DNA of 64,000 nucleotides from Bacteroidota bacterium (GCA_027484125.1 JAIXUI010000124.1:10254-74253), one strand, 5' to 3'. Shown: positions 741 to 10,883, numbered from the stretch's first letter. Numbers and translations: made by a program. Notes: generated from the letters alone by a model not told the origin.

Positions 741-889
741 GACTTAAAGGTATTAATTAGGGGATTGTAAATCCAACACGCGTTAGTCCGCTGTCGTAGC
801 TCAAAGATAAACACAATCAAATGGAGGACTAGGAAGCCTCCATGTGAAGCAGCAGATAAGTGTCACTGACAAAATGATAAAAATTAAAT

Positions 890-1151
890 TGACACTTAAA
901 ATCCCTAAATAATCATTGTGTCATTCTTTTTATTGAAAATTAGTAATGACACTTAAAATTTCCGGATGGTCAATGTGTCTTTCTTTTTTTTCAAAAATTT
1001 GAATTGACACTTGAAATTTTTGAATGGCCGATGTGTCATTCTTTTTTCTGAGAATCCGAAATGACACTTAAGATTTCCAGATGATCAATGTGTCATTCTT
1101 TTTTTAAGAAATTCAAATTGACACTTAAAATTTAAAATAGCCCATGTGTCC
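890..1151. repeat. Five tandem direct repeats of ~57-58 bp, each carrying inverted half-sites TGACAC-N22-GTGTCA (operator/iteron-like array)
   Basis: TGACAC at 890, 947, 1005, 1062, 1119. Partner GTGTCA (or GTGTCT/GTGTCC) at 918, 975, 1033, 1090, 1145. Each unit also shares TTAAAAT after the first half-site and a T-run after the second. Extra half-sites lie at 862-872 (TGTCAcTGACA palindrome), 1177-1182, 1204-1209 and 1235-1240. The array sits in the divergent region between the RM gene start (740, minus) and the HTH gene start (1331, plus). Confidence 0.8.
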
Positions 1152-1330
1152 AATTAGTATTATAAAATTTCAATATGTCACATCAATTTTTCTTGGAACG
1201 CATGTGTCGATTTATCGAAATATTCGCGCATAATGTCACATAACAATACGCTCGCATTGATTTTCATAGTTGATTTGCATGCCTCACAAAAGCACAGAAA
1301 CAAAAGGAATAATATTAGCAAAAAATCAAT

Positions 1331-2502: not shown

Positions 2503-3045
2503 TCACCGGCTGTAATGCAGTTGCATCAAGCCGCTTTTATATTGCTTGATAGATTGCGGTTTTAGCCAAATGGGGTTGAACTCGCCTTGAGCTTGCTCGA
2601 ATAAGCGGATGCCATTACCTAATATCACGGGCACTACCGACACAATCCACTCATCTACAAGGTCGGCTTCCCAAAATGCCCTTAATAAGGAAGCGCCGCC
2701 ATCGCAGTAGATGGATTTACCTTCACGGGCTTTTTCTTGCTTCATCCATTCCACCGGGGCGGCTACTACATACTGCACCGAGGTATCTTCAGATTGCAAA
2801 CTGCAATCTCGGGTAAAAATAAAGTGTTTACATCCTTCATGTGGCACGGTTACTTCCATAGACAAGAGCTTGCTGTAAGTTCTCCGGCCCATCACCACGG
2901 TGTCTATGTCGTGCATGAATTCCTGGTATCCGTGGTCTTCGCCTGTTGGTGGAAGTTGCTCCAGAAAACTCAAGTCGTCGCCGGGGGCGGCCAAATAACC
3001 GTCCAAACTCATGGCGATGAATACCTTTAGCTTTCTCATACTCAT
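2503..3045 (-). CDS. dihydrofolate reductase family protein (RibD C-terminal domain-like)
   Basis: KVFIAMSLDGYLAAPGDDLSFL...VVMGRRTYS...ILGNGIRLF matches the RibD_C/DHFR-like family pattern. The ATG at 3045 overlaps the ispE stop (ATGA). Confidence 0.65.
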   Translation of the reverse strand: MSMRKLKVFIAMSLDGYLAAPGDDLSFLEQLPPTGEDHGYQEFMHDIDTVVMGRRTYSKLLSMEVTVPHEGCKHFIFTRDCSLQSEDTSVQYVVAAPVEWMKQEKAREGKSIYCDGGASLLRAFWEADLVDEWIVSVVPVILGNGIRLFEQAQGEFNPIWLKPQSIKQYKSGLMQLHYSR

Positions 3046-3857
3046 GCCAACTCACCAACTTTACAGTACATGCCCGGGAATAGATGATCCAAAACTGTGG
3101 CTTCCTTGAATATTCCAAAAACGGCAGAACCGCTTCCCGACATGGATGCGTAAACAGCACCTGCTTCATACAAGGTGGCCTTTATAGCTGCAAGTTGCGG
3201 ATGCAGCTTAAAAACAGACTGCTCGAAATCGTTTGCCAGCTGGCCTTTCCAATGTTCCGGCCCTTGAAGCACCACCGACTTTAAGTCGTACTGAGGAGCC
3301 GCCGGAATACAACCGGCATAAGCGTCTTGGGTAGAAACGCCAAATCCCGGATGAACTACGGCGATGTGCCAACCTTTCAAACTAAACTCAAAAGGGGTGA
3401 TTTCAGGTCCGGTTCCAAGTAAATAGGCGGCTTGATTAAGCAAGAAAAAAGCACAATCAGAACCTAATTGTGCTGCAATAAGCCGAAGTTGTTCCGGGCT
3501 CAACGGATTCCCAAAACAGGCATTTAAGCCCATTAAAGTAAATGCGGCATCTGAAGAGCCGCCACCTAAACCGGCTCCGTGAGGGAGTGTTTTATGAAGA
3601 TGTAGAAGTGCGCCACTTAACTGTGTCGCTTCTTCAAATGCCATAGCGGCTTTCACCACCAGGTTGTCGGAAGGAGCTCCACTTATTTCTAGTCCACTTT
3701 GCTCGAAGCCGAATCCTTCGTCTTCTAGAGGCGTAATTTCGAGCACATCATAAAATGGGAGCGGATAAAATACGCTTTCGATGGTATGGTAGCCATCAGG
3801 CCGGCGCGAATGAATGGCCAAACCAAGATTGATTTTGCCGCAGGGAAAGAGTATCAC
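3042..3857 (-). CDS. ispE: 4-diphosphocytidyl-2-C-methyl-D-erythritol kinase
   Basis: KINLGLAIHSRRPDGYH...LHKTLPHGAGLGGGSSDAA...ASMSGSGSAVFG is the GHMP-kinase/IspE signature. The start in the track is GTG at 3857. Confidence 0.8.
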   Translation of the reverse strand: MILFPCGKINLGLAIHSRRPDGYHTIESVFYPLPFYDVLEITPLEDEGFGFEQSGLEISGAPSDNLVVKAAMAFEEATQLSGALLHLHKTLPHGAGLGGGSSDAAFTLMGLNACFGNPLSPEQLRLIAAQLGSDCAFFLLNQAAYLLGTGPEITPFEFSLKGWHIAVVHPGFGVSTQDAYAGCIPAAPQYDLKSVVLQGPEHWKGQLANDFEQSVFKLHPQLAAIKATLYEAGAVYASMSGSGSAVFGIFKEATVLDHLFPGMYCKVGELA

Positions 3858-3860
3858 GGA

Positions 3861-5801
3861 TTATTTACGGGTGTACTCTGCAATTTTAGAATAAAGTTCG
3901 TCTTGGTTAAATGGCTTAGTCACAAAATCTGTCATGCCCATGGTCAAAACTTTTCTGCGCGTTTCCTGAAAAGCGTCGGCTGAAAGTGCTATGATGGGAA
4001 TATTGCGATTCAAGGCAGTGGGTTCTAAAGCACGAATTTTCTCAGTAACCTCAAATCCACTCATCTCTGGCATCTGAAGGTCCATCAATACTACATCAAA
4101 GCGCTCTAACATCAAGGCCTCGTAAGCTTCTTTTCCATTTGCAGCAACCGTAACCTTGGCGTTCCACTTTTTCAAAATTTGAGTAGCTACAATCTGATTG
4201 ATTTGATTGTCTTCTGCTAGAAGTACATGTATCTGTCCTAGATCTTTCACTTTATTTTCAACCGCCAACTCTTTCGAGACAGACAAATCGCCTACTTCAA
4301 AAGGAATAGTAGCAGTAAATGTAGAGCCTACTCCAACTTTACTGCTAATTCCGATGGTTCCTCCCTGCATCTCAATGAGCTTTTTAGTGATTGCTAAGCC
4401 TAATCCGGTACCACCAAATTTTCTGGTAGTGTCGGTGTAGGCTTGTGAAAAGCTTTCAAAAATAGTCGCAAACTTGGATTCAGGTATCCCAATGCCCGTA
4501 TCTACAACATCGAATTGAATCGCCATTTTGTTATTTAAACTGGCTTTCGAGATGTTGATGGTTACCCCACCTTGAGAGGTGAACTTGATAGCATTACCGG
4601 CTAGGTTGAGTATAATCTGATTGAGCCTGAAGGGGTCTCCCTTTAATACATGAGGTACTTCATCGTCCACATTACACCTTAGTGTGATTGACTTTTCGTC
4701 AGCTTTATGCTTCAGAAGTTTTTTAATCTCCTGAATTCGGCCTTCCAGTTCAAAATCAATAGTTTCAAAGACTACCTTTCCGGCTTCAATTTTAGAAAAG
4801 TCTAAGATGTCGTTGATGATAACTAAAAGATTATCAGCTGAATATTTGATTGACTGGAGGTTTTCCAGGTTTTTTCCTTCAAATCCTTCTTCCAATAGCA
4901 GACTCGTAAGGCCAATGATAGCATTCATGGGCGTACGAATTTCATGGCTCATGTTGGAAAGAAATTCAGCTTTGGCAGTTGCAGCAAGTTCTGCTTGGCG
5001 CTTGGCTTCTAAAAGCTCTATTTCAAATCGCTTACGCTCTGTGTTGTCGTTGAGGGTGAGAATTTTGTACCGATTTCCCTGCTGGTCAATAAAGCCAGCT
5101 CCGGTTTGAAGCACATCTACAATTTGTCCATGCTGATGCACAAACTGCCATTCTTCAGGCACTTCATTGTTTTTATCGAACTCCCGCAAAAAGTCTTCAA
5201 AGTAAGCATCACGCTGACTTTCAGGAAGCAAAAACGAGATAGGTTGACCAATTGCCTGCTTCTTGGAATAGCCGAAAATGGTGGTGAAAGCGCTGTTCAC
5301 CCGAGCAATGTATCCATCACAATTGATGAGACACATGGCCACACTTGTTGAATTGTAGATTAAATCGAGTAATCGTTCATTTTCTTGAAGCGCAAATTCG
5401 GCTGCAATCCGATCATTTTCCGATTGGATGAGTCGTTGTGCAGACCTTACGATTTTGATGAGTTGCTCCGGAGTTACTTCATTTTTAGGAAAATAGTCAA
5501 AGGCGCCAGCCTTCATCATTTCAACAGCAACTTTCTCATCACCTTGAGAAGTGAGTACGGCAATAGGAGAAGAAACTCCTTTTTCTCTTAGCTCCTTTAA
5601 CAATTTAAGACCGTCGGTACCTGGAAGCTGGTAATCTAAAAAGATACAGTCAAAGCGTTTTTCTGCAATTTTTATCAGCGCTTCTCTCGCCTCACGCGCA
5701 AGCTCAATTTCTGTATCTAATCCTGTTTTACGGAGCGCACGCTCGAAGGCCATGATGTCGATTTCATCATCCTCCACTAAGAAAATACGTAAGGGCGCCA
5801 T
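3861..5801 (-). CDS. hybrid sensor histidine kinase/response regulator (REC-PAS-HisKA-HATPase-REC)
   Basis: N-terminal receiver (RIFLVEDDEIDIMAFERAL...DCIFLDYQLPGTDGL), a PAS-like region, the H-box EFLSNMSHEIRTPMNAIIG, the ATPase G-boxes DTGIGI and GGTGLGLAI, and a C-terminal receiver (VLLAEDNQINQIVATQIL...VVLMDLQMPEMSGFE). Confidence 0.85.
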   Translation of the reverse strand: MAPLRIFLVEDDEIDIMAFERALRKTGLDTEIELAREAREALIKIAEKRFDCIFLDYQLPGTDGLKLLKELREKGVSSPIAVLTSQGDEKVAVEMMKAGAFDYFPKNEVTPEQLIKIVRSAQRLIQSENDRIAAEFALQENERLLDLIYNSTSVAMCLINCDGYIARVNSAFTTIFGYSKKQAIGQPISFLLPESQRDAYFEDFLREFDKNNEVPEEWQFVHQHGQIVDVLQTGAGFIDQQGNRYKILTLNDNTERKRFEIELLEAKRQAELAATAKAEFLSNMSHEIRTPMNAIIGLTSLLLEEGFEGKNLENLQSIKYSADNLLVIINDILDFSKIEAGKVVFETIDFELEGRIQEIKKLLKHKADEKSITLRCNVDDEVPHVLKGDPFRLNQIILNLAGNAIKFTSQGGVTINISKASLNNKMAIQFDVVDTGIGIPESKFATIFESFSQAYTDTTRKFGGTGLGLAITKKLIEMQGGTIGISSKVGVGSTFTATIPFEVGDLSVSKELAVENKVKDLGQIHVLLAEDNQINQIVATQILKKWNAKVTVAANGKEAYEALMLERFDVVLMDLQMPEMSGFEVTEKIRALEPTALNRNIPIIALSADAFQETRRKVLTMGMTDFVTKPFNQDELYSKIAEYTRK

Positions 5802-5815
5802 GAAAGTTGATCAGC

Positions 5816-6277
5816 TTAGTCTGGGTATTCGCAAAGCTGCCAATAGTTATTCAGAGTAGAAACCGCATGGATAAAGCTTTCCATGGATAGCGGTTTCAGG
5901 ATATAACCTGCCACATTTAAATTATAGGCATTCACTTTATCGCTATCCTCGTTCGAGGTGGTCATTACAAACACTGAAATATTCTTGAGCCGGTCATCCT
6001 TACGTAACTCACGAAGGAATTCTATGCCACCCATCTTGGGCATGTTGAGATCGAGCAAAATTATTCTTGGAAGAGGAATAATCGCACTTTCAGGGTTTTT
6101 CCCTCTCAACATCTCTAAGGCTTCTAATCCATTATTGGCAACAAAAAGAGGATTAAGGACATTGTTCTTTTTAAATGCCCTCTTGACGTTCATTACATCA
6201 ACTTCGTCGTCCTCTACAAGCAGAATATTTATCATCCTCGTTTGTGACATCGTCACGTTTTGGTTATTGACGTGCAT
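5816..6277 (-). CDS. single-domain response regulator (CheY-like receiver)
   Basis: INILLVEDDEVDVMNVKRAF...IILLDLNMPKMGGIEFL...NISVFVMTTS is a receiver domain only. Alternative ATG starts at 6250 and 6235 would give a more typical N-terminus (MINILLVEDD). Confidence 0.75.
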   Translation of the reverse strand: MHVNNQNVTMSQTRMINILLVEDDEVDVMNVKRAFKKNNVLNPLFVANNGLEALEMLRGKNPESAIIPLPRIILLDLNMPKMGGIEFLRELRKDDRLKNISVFVMTTSNEDSDKVNAYNLNVAGYILKPLSMESFIHAVSTLNNYWQLCEYPD

Positions 6278-6374
6278 CTACACGCCCTTTCGACAAATCT
6301 AATCAACGGACTTGATAAATAGGAAAAATCCACCATTAATTGTCGTTGATAATTATAATATCCTGTAAAAAAGC

Positions 6375-7607
6375 TTATTCGTATCGGAGGGCTTCTATTG
6401 GGTCCAAGCGTGCGGCTTTGGCAGCCGGATAATACCCGGATATCAACCCTACTAAAAAACAAATAACCACTCCTCCAAGAATCCAACCCCATGGAATGAT
6501 GAACCCAGTGCCTACGAAAAAGGAGACTAGGTTGCCAATTAAAATCCCTAACACAATTCCCAGTAATCCACCCATTTGACCAATGGTGATGGCTTCTAGC
6601 AAAAACTGCTGTTTGATGGTTTTTTGAGTTGCACCAAGTGCTTTCCGAGTTCCTATTTCTTTGGTTCTTTCGGTAACAGAAACCAACATGATGTTCATTA
6701 AACCTATGGCAGCTCCCAGCAAGGTAATGAAGGCAATCCCGGTAGCTGCATATGAAACAAAGCTTAAATTTTCTATAAGATTTTGCGCAAAGCTGTCGCT
6801 TTTGATTACTGAAAAATTCTCTTCTTGCTCCAGCCTTAGACGCCTGATGATCCTGAATAGTCCGGTTGCCTCGTTCACGGCTAAATCAATCTCTGAAGGA
6901 TGTGTAACCGTTACAGCAATGGCATGATTGCGTTTGCCATCAGGAAAAAAAGTTCGCGCATTGGTAACCGGTATCACTACTGAGCGGTCTGCATTCATTC
7001 CAAATGAGGATCCTTTAGATGCCACAACTCCAATAATGCGATACTTAGAGGAGCCAACCGTCAGCATCTTCCCTATTGGGTCGATTTGTTTGAAGAGCGA
7101 AGTCTTTACTTCATTACCAATCAAGGCAACTGGCGTTGCATACAGCATGTCGTTGGGCGTAAAATTTCGCCCCGATGAAAGGGTGTAGCCTCCTGCTGAC
7201 AAATAATGCTCATCAGAGCCAAAAATTAGCACATTAGGATTCGACTTCTTTCGCTCGTATTTCAGTACTCCCACCCTGGAAATGATACAACTCACAGATA
7301 CGGTAGCCGGATATCTGTACCTTTTCTTAAAGTTTTGAGCATCCTCATAACTGATTTCTCGAGCAGCAGCCAAGCGTCGGCGCGGGCCACCAAAGTTGAG
7401 ATTCAATCCTCGATTTCTGATGTTAAAGGTGTTGGAACCTACACTAGAGAAAGTCTCTGTCATCGACTTTTCTAACGCATCGATGGAGGTTAAAATCCCA
7501 ACTAAGGCCATAATTCCTATCGAGATGATCAGTGCAGTTAACACTGACCTTAGTTTATTGCCTTTGATTGCCTCTAGGGCAATTTTGAAATTTTCAATCC
7601 AAATCAT
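6375..7607 (-). CDS. ABC transporter permease, FtsX/MacB-like family
   Basis: N-terminal TM helix, a large periplasmic domain, then C-terminal TM helices with [15 protein letters not shown] and the ending [17 protein letters not shown] typical of MacB/FtsX permeases. No adjacent ATPase gene. Confidence 0.75.
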
Positions 7608-8476: not shown

Positions 8477-10099
8477 TTGCAAGAAGTAGAAAAGGCTCCT
8501 TATGCAGTTTTTCTTCCACTCATCGTTTCTGCTTCACTCGCAGTAGGCATGATGATTGGGCACCAATTCAATCCGTCCGGCAGGTCAGGAACCAATAATG
8601 CCGGCCAGCTTTCAGAGGTAAGCAGGCTTATAAGACACAGCTATGTGGATGAATTAAGCGATGACAGCCTCAGTCAAGCCGGCATTGAAGCACTTCTTTC
8701 ACGCCTCGACCCCTTTTCTAGTTTTATTCCCGCCTCTGAATTAAGGTCGTACAATGAACCTTTAGAAGGCAATTTTCAGGGAATCGGCATTGAATATCTC
8801 ATCTTGCAAGACTCCCTGGTAGTAAGCGCCGTAGTTCCAGGAGGCCCAGCCGATGTTGCTGGCCTTAAGCCTGGGGACCGTATTTTCAAAGTCAATGCTC
8901 GAAATTTCACTGGAAAATGGCTTAACAACGATACCATCCAGCAAACCATACGCGGCCAGGAAGGCACTTCCGTTCAGCTGAGCGTGCTCAAATCAAATGG
9001 GGTCGCAGTTAATAAAAAGCTGGTTCGAACTAAAATTCCTATTCACAGCATCGAAACCGCTTTGATGCTTGACACAAAAACCGGATTTATAAAGCTCAAT
9101 AAATTCAGCGCCAGCACTTTAGATGAATTCAGAAAGTCTTTCACTATCCTAAGAGCGAAAGGCATGGAGCAGCTCATTCTCGATTTAAGAGACAATCCGG
9201 GAGGTTATCTGGAAGCTGCCATTGGGTTAGCCGATGAATTCCTCGAAGAAGACAACCTGATTACTTACACCCAAGGCGCACATGCACCGTTGCGAGAAAT
9301 GTACGCCACAGGTATGGGGCGATTTGAACGAGGAAAATTGGCCGTTTTAATCAATGAAAATTCTGCCTCTGCTTCAGAAGTGGTGGCAGGTGCTCTTCAA
9401 GACCATGATCGTGCACTACTCATTGGCCGCAGATCGTATGGCAAAGGGTTGGTGCAAGAACAATTCGACTTGAGCGACGGAAGCGCAGTGAGGCTTACCA
9501 TCGCCAGGTATTTTTCCCCTAGTGGCAGGTGTATTCAGCGCGACTACAGTCAGGGGCAAATCGCCTTTCAGGAAGACTGGCAAAACCGCTGGAATACTGG
9601 TGAGTTTTTCGACGAGGCCGCCTTCAAACCGGATAGTAGTCTTATGTATAAAACTTCACAAGGCAAAACTGTTTTCGGCGGTGGCGGAGTTACTCCTGAT
9701 TATTTCATCCCATTAGACACCACTGCTGATGGGCTTTTCAGATTCCTTGAAGCTGAATCGCTTGATTTAAGCGACTTTCTCGCTAAACTTTCTGACCTCA
9801 ACCGCAGTAGCTGGATGAATAAATATCAAGGAACAAAGTTCAATGCCATATTCGACAATGAACGCCTAACTGATAAGTTGGCTGCTTGGATGCGATTAAG
9901 TAGCGCCCAGCTTCAACAAGCTAAATGGTTCAAATCGTTGAAAAGAATCACCATACTAAGAATATCACGTAGCTTATGGGGTAACGATTTCTATTATAGC
10001 CTACAAACCCAAGACGATGCGTTTGTAAAAAAAGCTTTATCCCTTTTAAATACAGCTGATAAATTGAGAAACCCTCAGTCAGCCAAACTTAATCCCTAA
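8477..10099 (+). CDS. ctpA: S41-family C-terminal processing peptidase (tail-specific protease)
   Basis: N-terminal TM helix, a PDZ region (GLKPGDRIFKVNARNF), and the S41 catalytic region LILDLRDNPGGYL...GRRSYGKG. The start codon is TTG at 8477. Confidence 0.8.
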   Translation: MQEVEKAPYAVFLPLIVSASLAVGMMIGHQFNPSGRSGTNNAGQLSEVSRLIRHSYVDELSDDSLSQAGIEALLSRLDPFSSFIPASELRSYNEPLEGNFQGIGIEYLILQDSLVVSAVVPGGPADVAGLKPGDRIFKVNARNFTGKWLNNDTIQQTIRGQEGTSVQLSVLKSNGVAVNKKLVRTKIPIHSIETALMLDTKTGFIKLNKFSASTLDEFRKSFTILRAKGMEQLILDLRDNPGGYLEAAIGLADEFLEEDNLITYTQGAHAPLREMYATGMGRFERGKLAVLINENSASASEVVAGALQDHDRALLIGRRSYGKGLVQEQFDLSDGSAVRLTIARYFSPSGRCIQRDYSQGQIAFQEDWQNRWNTGEFFDEAAFKPDSSLMYKTSQGKTVFGGGGVTPDYFIPLDTTADGLFRFLEAESLDLSDFLAKLSDLNRSSWMNKYQGTKFNAIFDNERLTDKLAAWMRLSSAQLQQAKWFKSLKRITILRISRSLWGNDFYYSLQTQDDAFVKKALSLLNTADKLRNPQSAKLNP

Positions 10100-10883
10100 C
10101 CTTGTAACAACGCCCCTCTTCCGCTACTGAAGTAGCTGAAAATACGGCAACAGCTTCTTCCAGATGCTCAAAGGTATCTTTGTATCTGGCAGAAAAATGT
10201 CCTATCAATAATTGTGAAGCATTGCTTGCCTGGGCAATAAGTGCAGCTTGCCTGGCAGTACTATGACCGGTAGCGATGGCTTTATGCTCAAGCTCTTCCG
10301 TAAAAGTGGCTTCGTGGTAAAGCAAATCAACACCATAGAGATTTCTGGCAAGTTCCGGCAAATAAACAGTATCAGAGATATAGGCATAAGAGGCCTTTTT
10401 TTCCTCTAACAGCGTAGAAAACAGAAAACCGGTTGTAGGGATTCGGTGAGCGATGGGCAGTGATTTCAAAAGCAGTTGACCTTCAATCTCCCATTCATGC
10501 ACTTGATGAGGTGAGGTTTGGTGAAAGACCAGCGGATAGCCCATAGGGCCGCCGCTATGAGAAAAAATAAGTTGTAAAAGCTCTTCCAGACCCGCGGGTG
10601 CGTATAAATGCAATGGCTTGGTTCGTCCGGTTAAATGCCAAGCCGTTAGCAAACCAGGCAATCCGAAGTAGTGGTCACCATGCAAATGGGTGATGCAGAT
10701 GTGGTCAATTCTACCCAACTTAAGCCCATATCGGAGAAGCTGCATTTGAGTACCTTCTCCGCAATCGATAAGAATTCTTAGTTGGTTATAGACAAGCAGG
10801 TGGGAAGAAGGATTTCTCCATGGAACTGGAGTAGCAGAGCCCGAGCCCAATACATGCACTTCAAAGGGTGGGACACCACTCAT
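10089..10883 (-). CDS. rnz: ribonuclease Z (MBL-fold metallo-hydrolase)
   Basis: ITHLHGDHYFGLPGLL histidine motif and a short-form RNase Z-like layout. Track start 10886 is GTG; ATG at 10883. Confidence 0.65.
   Translation of the reverse strand: MSGVPPFEVHVLGSGSATPVPWRNPSSHLLVYNQLRILIDCGEGTQMQLLRYGLKLGRIDHICITHLHGDHYFGLPGLLTAWHLTGRTKPLHLYAPAGLEELLQLIFSHSGGPMGYPLVFHQTSPHQVHEWEIEGQLLLKSLPIAHRIPTTGFLFSTLLEEKKASYAYISDTVYLPELARNLYGVDLLYHEATFTEELEHKAIATGHSTARQAALIAQASNASQLLIGHFSARYKDTFEHLEEAVAVFSATSVAEEGRCYKVRD

Follow-up and report, generated by a model that had tools for sequence, protein, structure and literature searches.

A putative multi-site operator of an uncharacterised XRE-family regulator beside a type IIG restriction gene in Bacteroidota

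The locus described here lies within a 64,000-nucleotide stretch of DNA from a Bacteroidota bacterium (GCA_027484125.1 JAIXUI010000124.1:10254-74253; hereafter the window), where an AT-rich intergenic spacer of 590 base pairs (bp; positions 741-1330) separates two divergent genes and carries an array of short repeated half-sites. The minus-strand gene, with its ATG at 740, is represented by the 5' part (2-740; 246 codons) of the coding sequence for a single-chain type IIG restriction enzyme-methyltransferase of 1207 amino acids (Pfam DUF7149; E value 1e-100); it reads away from the array and continues past the window edge. The plus-strand gene starting at 1331 (1331-1849) encodes a 172-amino-acid regulator of the XRE family with a helix-turn-helix (HTH) domain (Pfam HTH_3; E value 7.5e-6). 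It is followed on the same strand (2007-2429) by the gene of a 140-amino-acid protein, here called the partner, predicted to form a two-helix antiparallel hairpin (helices 3-69 and 73-139 in a single-sequence model). The array between the divergent genes is considered below as the candidate operator of the regulator.

Oriented on a TGTC core, 15 half-sites span positions 861-1239 (about 375-380 bp) and conform to the consensus (A/T)(A/T)G-TGTCA-(A/T)T. Their cores start at 861>, 867<, 890<, 919>, 947<, 976>, 1005<, 1034>, 1062<, 1091>, 1119<, 1147>, 1176>, 1205> and 1234>, where the arrowheads give orientation, and the spacing from 890 on is 28-29 bp by core starts (27-30 bp by site centres across the series). 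Ten of the 15 are arranged as five units of 57-58 bp (879-1165, not assigned to a strand), of the form TGACAC-N22-GTGTCA or, with flanks, AAATTGACACTTAAAAT-N~14-ATGTGTCATTCTTTTTT, as defined by Tandem Repeats Finder, pattern statistics and unit alignment. The paired half-sites lie at 890-895 and 918-923 (unit 1), 947-952 and 975-980 (unit 2), 1005-1010 and 1033-1038 (unit 3), 1062-1067 and 1090-1095 (unit 4), and 1119-1124 and 1146-1151 (unit 5). The existence of five units with this period, proposed in a first-pass annotation of the window, is thus borne out by both repeat finding and pattern statistics, with some corrections of detail: the 22-bp separation of inverted half-sites holds for units 1-4 but is 21 nucleotides in unit 5, and the half-sites are less uniform than described, the right half being GTGTCT in unit 2 and GTGTCC in unit 5. 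Flanking the units are five further half-sites (861, 867, 1176, 1205 and 1234), where at least four had been reported. Two of these, 6 bp apart, form a distal compact palindrome, TGTCACTGACA (TGTCAcTGACA; strandless), which is present as annotated but at 861-871 rather than 862-872, and which sits 23 bp ahead of the first lattice site. The last four sites (1147-1234) share one orientation, a feature missing from the annotation. The final three constitute a degenerate, single-orientation proximal segment on a 29-bp lattice (1175-1239, plus strand), recognised from pattern statistics, the site table and family comparison: ATGTCACAT (1175-1183), GTGTCG (1204-1209) and again ATGTCACAT (1233-1241, two nucleotides beyond the end of the feature).

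The array is statistically exceptional within the window. Tandem Repeats Finder delimits it at 878-1133 with a period of 57 bp (4.5 copies, 74% matches), resolves a 115-bp higher-order period in the same array (80% matches), and detects no comparable tandem array elsewhere in the 64 kb. The pattern TGACAC-N22-GTGTC, searched on both strands with at most one mismatch, occurs nine times, all inside 890-1208, against a window-wide expectation of 0.67, and none of 100 shuffles yielded nine. Nine of the window's 20 perfect TGACAC/GTGTCA hexamers fall in 860-1124. A dispersed repeat (of the repetitive extragenic palindrome or miniature inverted-repeat transposable element kind) was considered and rejected, as the 64-kb window contains no further copy and scans of other genomes were empty: an exact search for TGACACTT-N19-TGTGTC-N-TTCTTT gave no match in 185,579 GTDB species genomes and none in IMG/VR. 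A four-half-site pattern matched nine contigs in JGI metagenomes, all of them unrelated (GC-rich simple repeats or minisatellites). The scattering of the repeat over unrelated loci, which the annotation had named among the observations that would count against a regulatory role, was therefore looked for in the window, in genomes and in metagenomes, and was not observed. Among the JGI contigs, L012-L014, L018 and L019 carry minisatellites of 28-29 bp that mimic alternating half-sites, with GTGACAC turning into GTGTCAC and back by one A/T difference; these are probably eukaryotic or other tandem repeats.

Variation within and between copies of the array bears on how it is maintained. Among the five core units, hardly any change is seen in the half-sites or the bases directly beside them (CTTAAAAT and TTCTTTTT), 58 of 60 core half-site positions being intact, while the middle of the spacer (about 14 nucleotides) varies and units 1-4 are 72-82% identical in pairwise comparison. 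This retention of half-sites and flanks amid diverging spacer centres suggests that the sites have been under selection and that the units are not simply recent neutral duplicates. The array is present, with an equal number of units, in all ten independent contigs that contain the regulator gene (one metagenome-assembled genome and nine Logan assemblies), which differ by five single-nucleotide polymorphisms (four within the array) and by one length difference in the poly-T tract of unit 2 (984-991). This tract, the sole length polymorphism of the array, has eight T in the window and in L005, L006, L008 and L009 and seven in L001-L004, L007 and L010, shifting one half-site spacing by 1 bp. A neutral minisatellite, in which slippage or unequal crossing-over multiplied an original operator of two sites and most of the present 15 serve no function, would account for the nested 57-bp and 115-bp periods, which are typical of duplication, for the 7/8-T length polymorphism, and for the reach of the array far from the HTH start codon, unlike in the relatives described below. 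Such an origin may apply to part of the array but is unlikely to explain the whole, given that the core half-sites are intact in units otherwise so diverged, that unit number is constant in the ten contigs, and that the lattice spacing is held to within 1 bp even through the degenerate proximal sites. Should the extra units nonetheless prove functionless, the locus would be a clean case of operator amplification.

The regulator is modelled with high confidence by AlphaFold (predicted local distance difference test score 92.5) as an HTH domain (residues 2-58), a proline-rich, low-confidence linker (residues 59-72) and an all-helical C-terminal domain (residues 73-171) that opens with a 44-residue helix. 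In structure and profile searches, matches to solved structures are limited to the N-terminal ~50 residues, the best HTH matches being the restriction-modification controller proteins (C-proteins) C.BclI, C.AhdI, C.Kpn2I and C.Esp1396I, together with HipB, ClgR, CylR2 and SinR. The top Foldseek match is C.BclI (root-mean-square deviation 2.0 over 51 residues, E value 0.06, N-terminal domain only), and a profile search recovers C.AhdI at an E value of 4.6e-6. The C-terminal domain matches no described family in Pfam, NCBIfam or PHROGs. The partner likewise belongs to no family in these three libraries, and its sole library match is a marginal one to the PADLOC JetC profile (E value 0.005). No significant PDB sequence match to the partner was found (the only one has an E value of 0.35), and fold searches with it return generic coiled-coil hairpins only, such as SMC arms and the PI3K iSH2 segment. 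Homology between the regulator C-terminal domain and the partner was not detected either (hhalign probability 1.5% for an alignment of 16 HTH-family sequences, A1, against one of partner homologues, A2; a further alignment of partner homologues is A4).

Relatives of the regulator provide the principal evidence on the function of the array. An exhaustive HMMER scan of 1.84 billion representatives gave 36 matches, of which about 15 are full-length (about 165-180 amino acids, 26-35% identity), defining a rare, unannotated family from Bacteroidota-type genomes and metagenomes. Word-indexed protein searches with the HTH protein or the partner returned only the queries themselves, and a profile search added merely a few family members on short contigs. 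Half-site arrays of three to nine sites lie directly upstream of the regulator gene in all 11 relatives with readable DNA. The word repeated differs with the protein: L020 (protein P0002, 34% identity) has eight copies of TTGTCACAA (word TGTCAC), arranged >> << >> << at 12-17 bp; L022 (P0003) has seven of TGTCAC; L028 (P0009) has six of TTGTCAA and L030 (P0027) eight of the same word (<< >> << >>, 14 bp); L023 and L031 (P0014 and P0017) each have four of TTGTCGG (<< >>, exactly 14 bp); L029 (P0012) has about nine of TGATCA at 13-14 bp; L032 (P0039) has five of TGCCACAA; L033 (P0034) has four of GCTTACA; L034 (P0013) has four of TGCTACA; and the Hymenobacter loci L026 and L027 have three sites each of other words. 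The core words of the family thus vary with the protein (TGTCAC, TGTCAA, TGTCGG, GATCA, TGCCACA, TGCTACA and GCTTACA), with a TGTCA core common to four relatives. In nine of ten relatives' loci scanned, the short intergenic region contains about as many copies of the word as the far longer rest of the locus, or more; the exception is L029, whose short GATC word is commoner in the remainder (9 intergenic against 13). P0014 and P0017 are 46% identical, and the four-site block upstream of their genes is nearly invariant amid diverged flanks, amounting to a phylogenetic footprint.

The geometry of these arrays is related to that of the window. Sites in the relatives follow a lattice of about 14-15 bp, usually as quartets (>> <<). 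Sites i and i+2 face opposite ways at a distance of 25-32 bp, and 14-71 bp separate the last site from the ATG. Neighbouring sites in the window array are inverted at 28-29 bp, about twice the family lattice and within the range of the relatives' i-to-i+2 distance. The window array is three to eight times the usual length (about 375 bp against 45-110 bp), and its sites at 861, 1176 and 1234 have the TGTCAC form, as in the two closest relatives (P0002 and P0003). In L020, the regulator array at 1975-2095 is accompanied by a second TGTCAC array at the start of the contig (1-100), upstream of an operon encoding a HipA_2 kinase and a 281-amino-acid protein; judged by its position ahead of this operon, the regulator can apparently target neighbouring cargo. 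An assembly break falls within the L020 array, which suggests that further copies may be present.

The genes accompanying the regulator comprise a recurrent partner and varied neighbours. Partner homologues (about 137 amino acids) follow the regulator gene in seven relatives (L022, L023, L026, L027, L032, L033 and L034), and because of this recurrence the regulator and the hairpin protein are, by genomic context, a conserved two-gene module; when loci were searched with the partner alignment, two from Hymenobacter were the only ones recovered. In three of 12 family loci, namely the window (type IIG), L022 (HsdM) and L033 (HsdR), a restriction gene lies divergently next to the regulator gene, and other neighbours are variously RadC, HipA_2 or DUF4062 protein genes or unrelated housekeeping genes. 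L033 also encodes, at 2672-6747, a 673-amino-acid TIR_2/APH/TCAD9 protein and a 682-amino-acid protein of no family, with the divergent HsdR-like gene on the opposite side, a neighbourhood that fits a defence-island setting for the module.

Taken together, these comparisons argue that the adjacent 172-amino-acid regulator has its cognate multi-site operator in the array (estimated probability about 0.68), because arrays are universal in the family, the repeated word co-varies with the protein, and within the module only the regulator is a DNA-binding protein. The first-pass annotation had favoured the same assignment; its support now extends to 11 distant relatives with upstream arrays of their own and to the co-variation of operator and protein. 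In kind, the element would be an operator array of an XRE-type regulator, a known class; new are the uncharacterised, rare family, the fixed lattice and the exceptional amplification. Mechanistically, each HTH domain would read one G-TGTCA-W-T half-site, and the flexible linkers of about 14 residues would tether the HTH domains to the C-terminal helical domain, which may oligomerise. The mixture of direct and inverted sites together with the flexible linker suggests such HTH domains reading single half-sites on an oligomeric scaffold. Dimers or higher oligomers might thereby bridge inverted half-sites about 28-29 bp apart (about 97 Å) and load cooperatively along the lattice; two ~14-residue linkers plus the scaffold could plausibly span 28.5 bp. 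In the relatives the lattice is filled at every position, with a site every 14-15 bp, and runs up to the start of the regulator gene, an arrangement consistent with repression of the regulator-partner operon by its own product. In the window a site occupies only every second position of the lattice, and tandem amplification of the unit, first at 57 bp and then at 115 bp, would have given about 15 sites occupying the gap between two divergent putative promoters. The resulting complex of protein and DNA probably controls expression of its own operon and, as a plausible reading of the divergent arrangement, probably also that of the type IIG gene. The helical-hairpin partner is a candidate modulator, acting as a co-repressor or anti-repressor. 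Binding, oligomeric state, sign of regulation, effect on the type IIG gene and role of the partner are all putative in this model.

Several observations weigh against the operator assignment, which was made by sequence comparison. Between the end of the array and the ATG there are 95 bp, where the relatives have 14-71 bp, and the array lies between, not over, the sole promoter-like motifs found, so that simple promoter occlusion is not evident. These motifs are a candidate Bacteroidota-type -7 box for the type IIG gene, TATCTTTG (802-809, minus strand), which lies 62 nucleotides before the ATG and is the sole perfect TAnnTTTG in the 590-bp intergenic region, and a weak candidate -7 box for the HTH gene, TTGATTTG (1270-1277, plus strand), which matches at five of six specified positions; both are read from sequence motifs, and a sigma-70 promoter scan showed no excess over shuffles. 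The centre spacing of 28.5 bp corresponds to about 2.7 helical turns, which places paired sites off one face of the DNA. Family neighbours vary, and control of restriction-modification is therefore not a conserved family trait. Finally, the closest relative is 34% identical, and so no orthologous array offers a direct footprint of the window array.

If the assignment is true, it provides a ready, testable regulator-operator pair, with the protein, the half-site and the change of half-site over about 12 relatives all in hand. To our knowledge, few transcription-factor specificities are known in Bacteroidota. The mixed-orientation lattice of 14-15 bp, doubled in the window, would be an uncommon binding geometry, and the tethered HTH domains and helical scaffold would be of structural interest. 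The locus may also show how a fused type IIG enzyme is controlled after horizontal transfer, outside the classical C-protein model.

By analogy, the functionally closest known systems appear to be the C-proteins with their C-boxes and the SinR/SinI pair. C-proteins are single-domain dimers of about 70-100 amino acids; they bind the C-box, GACT-N3-AGTC-N4-GACT-N3-AGTC, in which two operators lie about 15 bp apart from centre to centre directly upstream of the C gene, and the endonuclease gene lies behind the C gene in a common transcript (PMC2175313). Compared with C.PvuII, C.AhdI, C.BclI and C.Esp1396I, the window system shares the XRE/HTH_3 fold, repeated inverted half-sites ahead of the regulator's own gene and, in three of 12 family loci, an adjoining restriction-modification gene. 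It differs in that the regulator has 172 amino acids with an additional helical domain of about 100 amino acids, that about 15 GTGTCA sites occur in 28.5-bp steps over 380 bp, that the HTH gene and a single-chain type IIG gene are transcribed divergently, with the conserved hairpin protein gene downstream of the former, and that most family members lie away from restriction-modification genes. The regulator is accordingly no canonical C-protein, and the sites are no C-box: protein size, C-box sequence and geometry, and co-transcription with the endonuclease all disagree, and among the defining traits of a canonical C-protein/C-box system the HTH fold alone agrees. Control of the type IIG gene is plausible, and timing of its enzyme in the manner of an expanded C-box, as raised in the first-pass annotation, is possible, a link suggested only by the position of the divergent restriction gene in the window, L022 and L033.

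In the SinR/SinI pair of Bacillus subtilis, whose antagonist SinI resembles the SinR C-terminus, further parallels can be drawn. SinR is a tetramer with radiating HTH domains; the 7-bp motif that it recognises recurs in multiple copies and varied orientations at target promoters, and a small helical protein acts as its antagonist (PMC3163267). Common to both systems are a predicted XRE HTH domain, a flexible linker and a C-terminal helical domain (that of SinR oligomerises), many short sites in mixed orientations, and a small all-helical protein encoded beside the regulator. Unlike SinI, the partner shows no detected homology to the regulator C-terminal domain, which is also larger (100 amino acids against about 40 in SinR); the lattice is a strict 14/28-bp one, and the phylum is another. 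HipB-type antitoxins bind four palindromic operators upstream of hipBA, and the resemblance lies in an XRE HTH domain with multiple spaced promoter operators; HipB is among the best HTH matches, and L020 adjoins a HipA_2 operon with its second array. However, the window contains no kinase or toxin gene, its regulator has another architecture and partner, and its array is far larger. Centromere-binding proteins of the ParR/parC and omega types have a ribbon-helix-helix fold and a cognate NTPase gene, and are found on plasmids. Like the window array, their targets are regular arrays of about ten short repeats, and cooperative coating by a small DNA-binding protein is possible in both, whereas the window protein is an XRE HTH protein with no NTPase gene and no plasmid context.

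The regulatory genes belong to a compositionally distinct block. The type IIG gene, the array, the HTH gene and the partner gene together occupy about 5.5 kb at 30-39% GC, against 43-50% in the flanks, corresponding to L001 5650-11170 (window start to about 2500), with hairpin terminators at both ends. The right-hand one in the window is a GC-rich hairpin, aagcccccttcaactc...gagttgaagggggctt (2454-2495, strandless; located from the sequence and the GC profile), between the partner gene and a convergent RibD_C gene, and probably terminates transcription in both directions and marks the right-hand limit of the low-GC island. The type IIG gene is complete in L001 (5788-9411), with DUF7149, DUF7814, MmeI_Mtase, Eco57I and TaqI_C domains and a PADLOC match to REase_MTase_IIG (E value 3e-246). 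Five Logan contigs stop 105-121 bp past its 3' end, and the block as a whole has the appearance of an island gained by horizontal transfer and variable between strains. No second array, of the kind seen at L020, is present at the 3' end of the type IIG gene. The island codes for the type IIG enzyme, the HTH protein and the hairpin protein only, the regulator being its one protein with a DNA-binding domain; among the encoded proteins there are no replication (Rep), partition (ParA/ParM/TubZ), integrase or recombinase, or relaxase or transfer functions.

This gene content bears on a further suggestion of the first-pass annotation, namely that an integrated mobile element replicates from the array as an iteron-type origin or uses it for partition as a centromere-like site. 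Short repeats at regular intervals in AT-rich intergenic DNA, within a low-GC island, would suit such an element. Either role is nevertheless very improbable, as the island is devoid of Rep, ParA/ParM/TubZ, integrase and relaxase genes, the sites alternate in orientation instead of forming direct iterons, the relatives occupy ordinary chromosomal loci, and no relatives were found in 72,556 plasmids, 50,697 phage records or IMG/VR. Specifically, tblastn and blastn searches of the plasmid and phage collections with the HTH protein and of the plasmids with the partner and the array DNA gave no match, and viral scans with the HTH and partner alignments were empty.

An element acting at the RNA level, with the units serving as small RNAs or as serial hairpin-plus-T-run terminators or attenuators in a long leader, has a similarly slim chance of being correct. 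In every unit a T-run comes after an inverted repeat of 6 bp, one terminator-like site is predicted at 1022-1041, and the minus strand folds with a z-score of -3.0. Yet the stems are merely 6 bp with loops of 22 nucleotides, the plus-strand z-score is only -1.7, terminator-like sites are no more numerous than in shuffles, and no Rfam match reaches the gathering thresholds. Furthermore, the relatives' sites are direct as well as inverted and spaced at 14 bp, an arrangement that makes hairpins impossible.

The hexamers might instead be recognition sites of the neighbouring type IIG enzyme, clustered there or used in self-regulation. MmeI-like enzymes recognise asymmetric words of 6-7 bp and prefer two sites, and the array adjoins the enzyme gene. 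This explanation is the most remote of those considered: no restriction-modification gene lies near the arrays of the HTH relatives at L020, L023, L030 and L031, changes in the word track the HTH protein, and TGACAC/GTGTCA outside the array is neither depleted nor enriched (11 observed against 13.7 expected). An avoidance of TGACAC outside the array was hinted at by dinucleotide shuffles and disappeared under a trinucleotide Markov model.

Returning to the operator interpretation, a more elaborate scheme can be put forward tentatively, although it is doubtful in its full form. Here, the regulator and partner would be an uncharacterised two-gene module travelling with Bacteroidota defence genes, its neighbours including type IIG and type I restriction-modification genes, HipA-like kinases and TIR proteins. 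The regulator would polymerise on a fixed lattice of about 14.3 bp, the 380-bp array would serve as a high-capacity nucleation or titration platform and thus as a threshold or time-delay switch for the type IIG enzyme, and the partner would be a signal-responsive antagonist. The classical route of 'methylase first, nuclease later' is closed to such an enzyme, which is one polypeptide.

Two minor features were observed elsewhere in the window. A gene on the minus strand at about 10090-10880 (L001 18759-19553) encodes a 264-amino-acid protein with a metallo-beta-lactamase fold that matches Pfam Anti-Pycsar_Apyc1 (PF23023) and Lactamase_B, and that may be an ordinary housekeeping hydrolase of this fold. 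In addition, with 841-1260 masked, several palindromic hexamers fall far below the counts expected from a trinucleotide Markov model (GTATAC, 0 against 21.9 expected; CTATAG, 0 against 13.4; CTGCAG, 8 against 32), and almost all GATC-containing hexamers are depleted two- to three-fold, which suggests long restriction pressure at those sites in the lineage.

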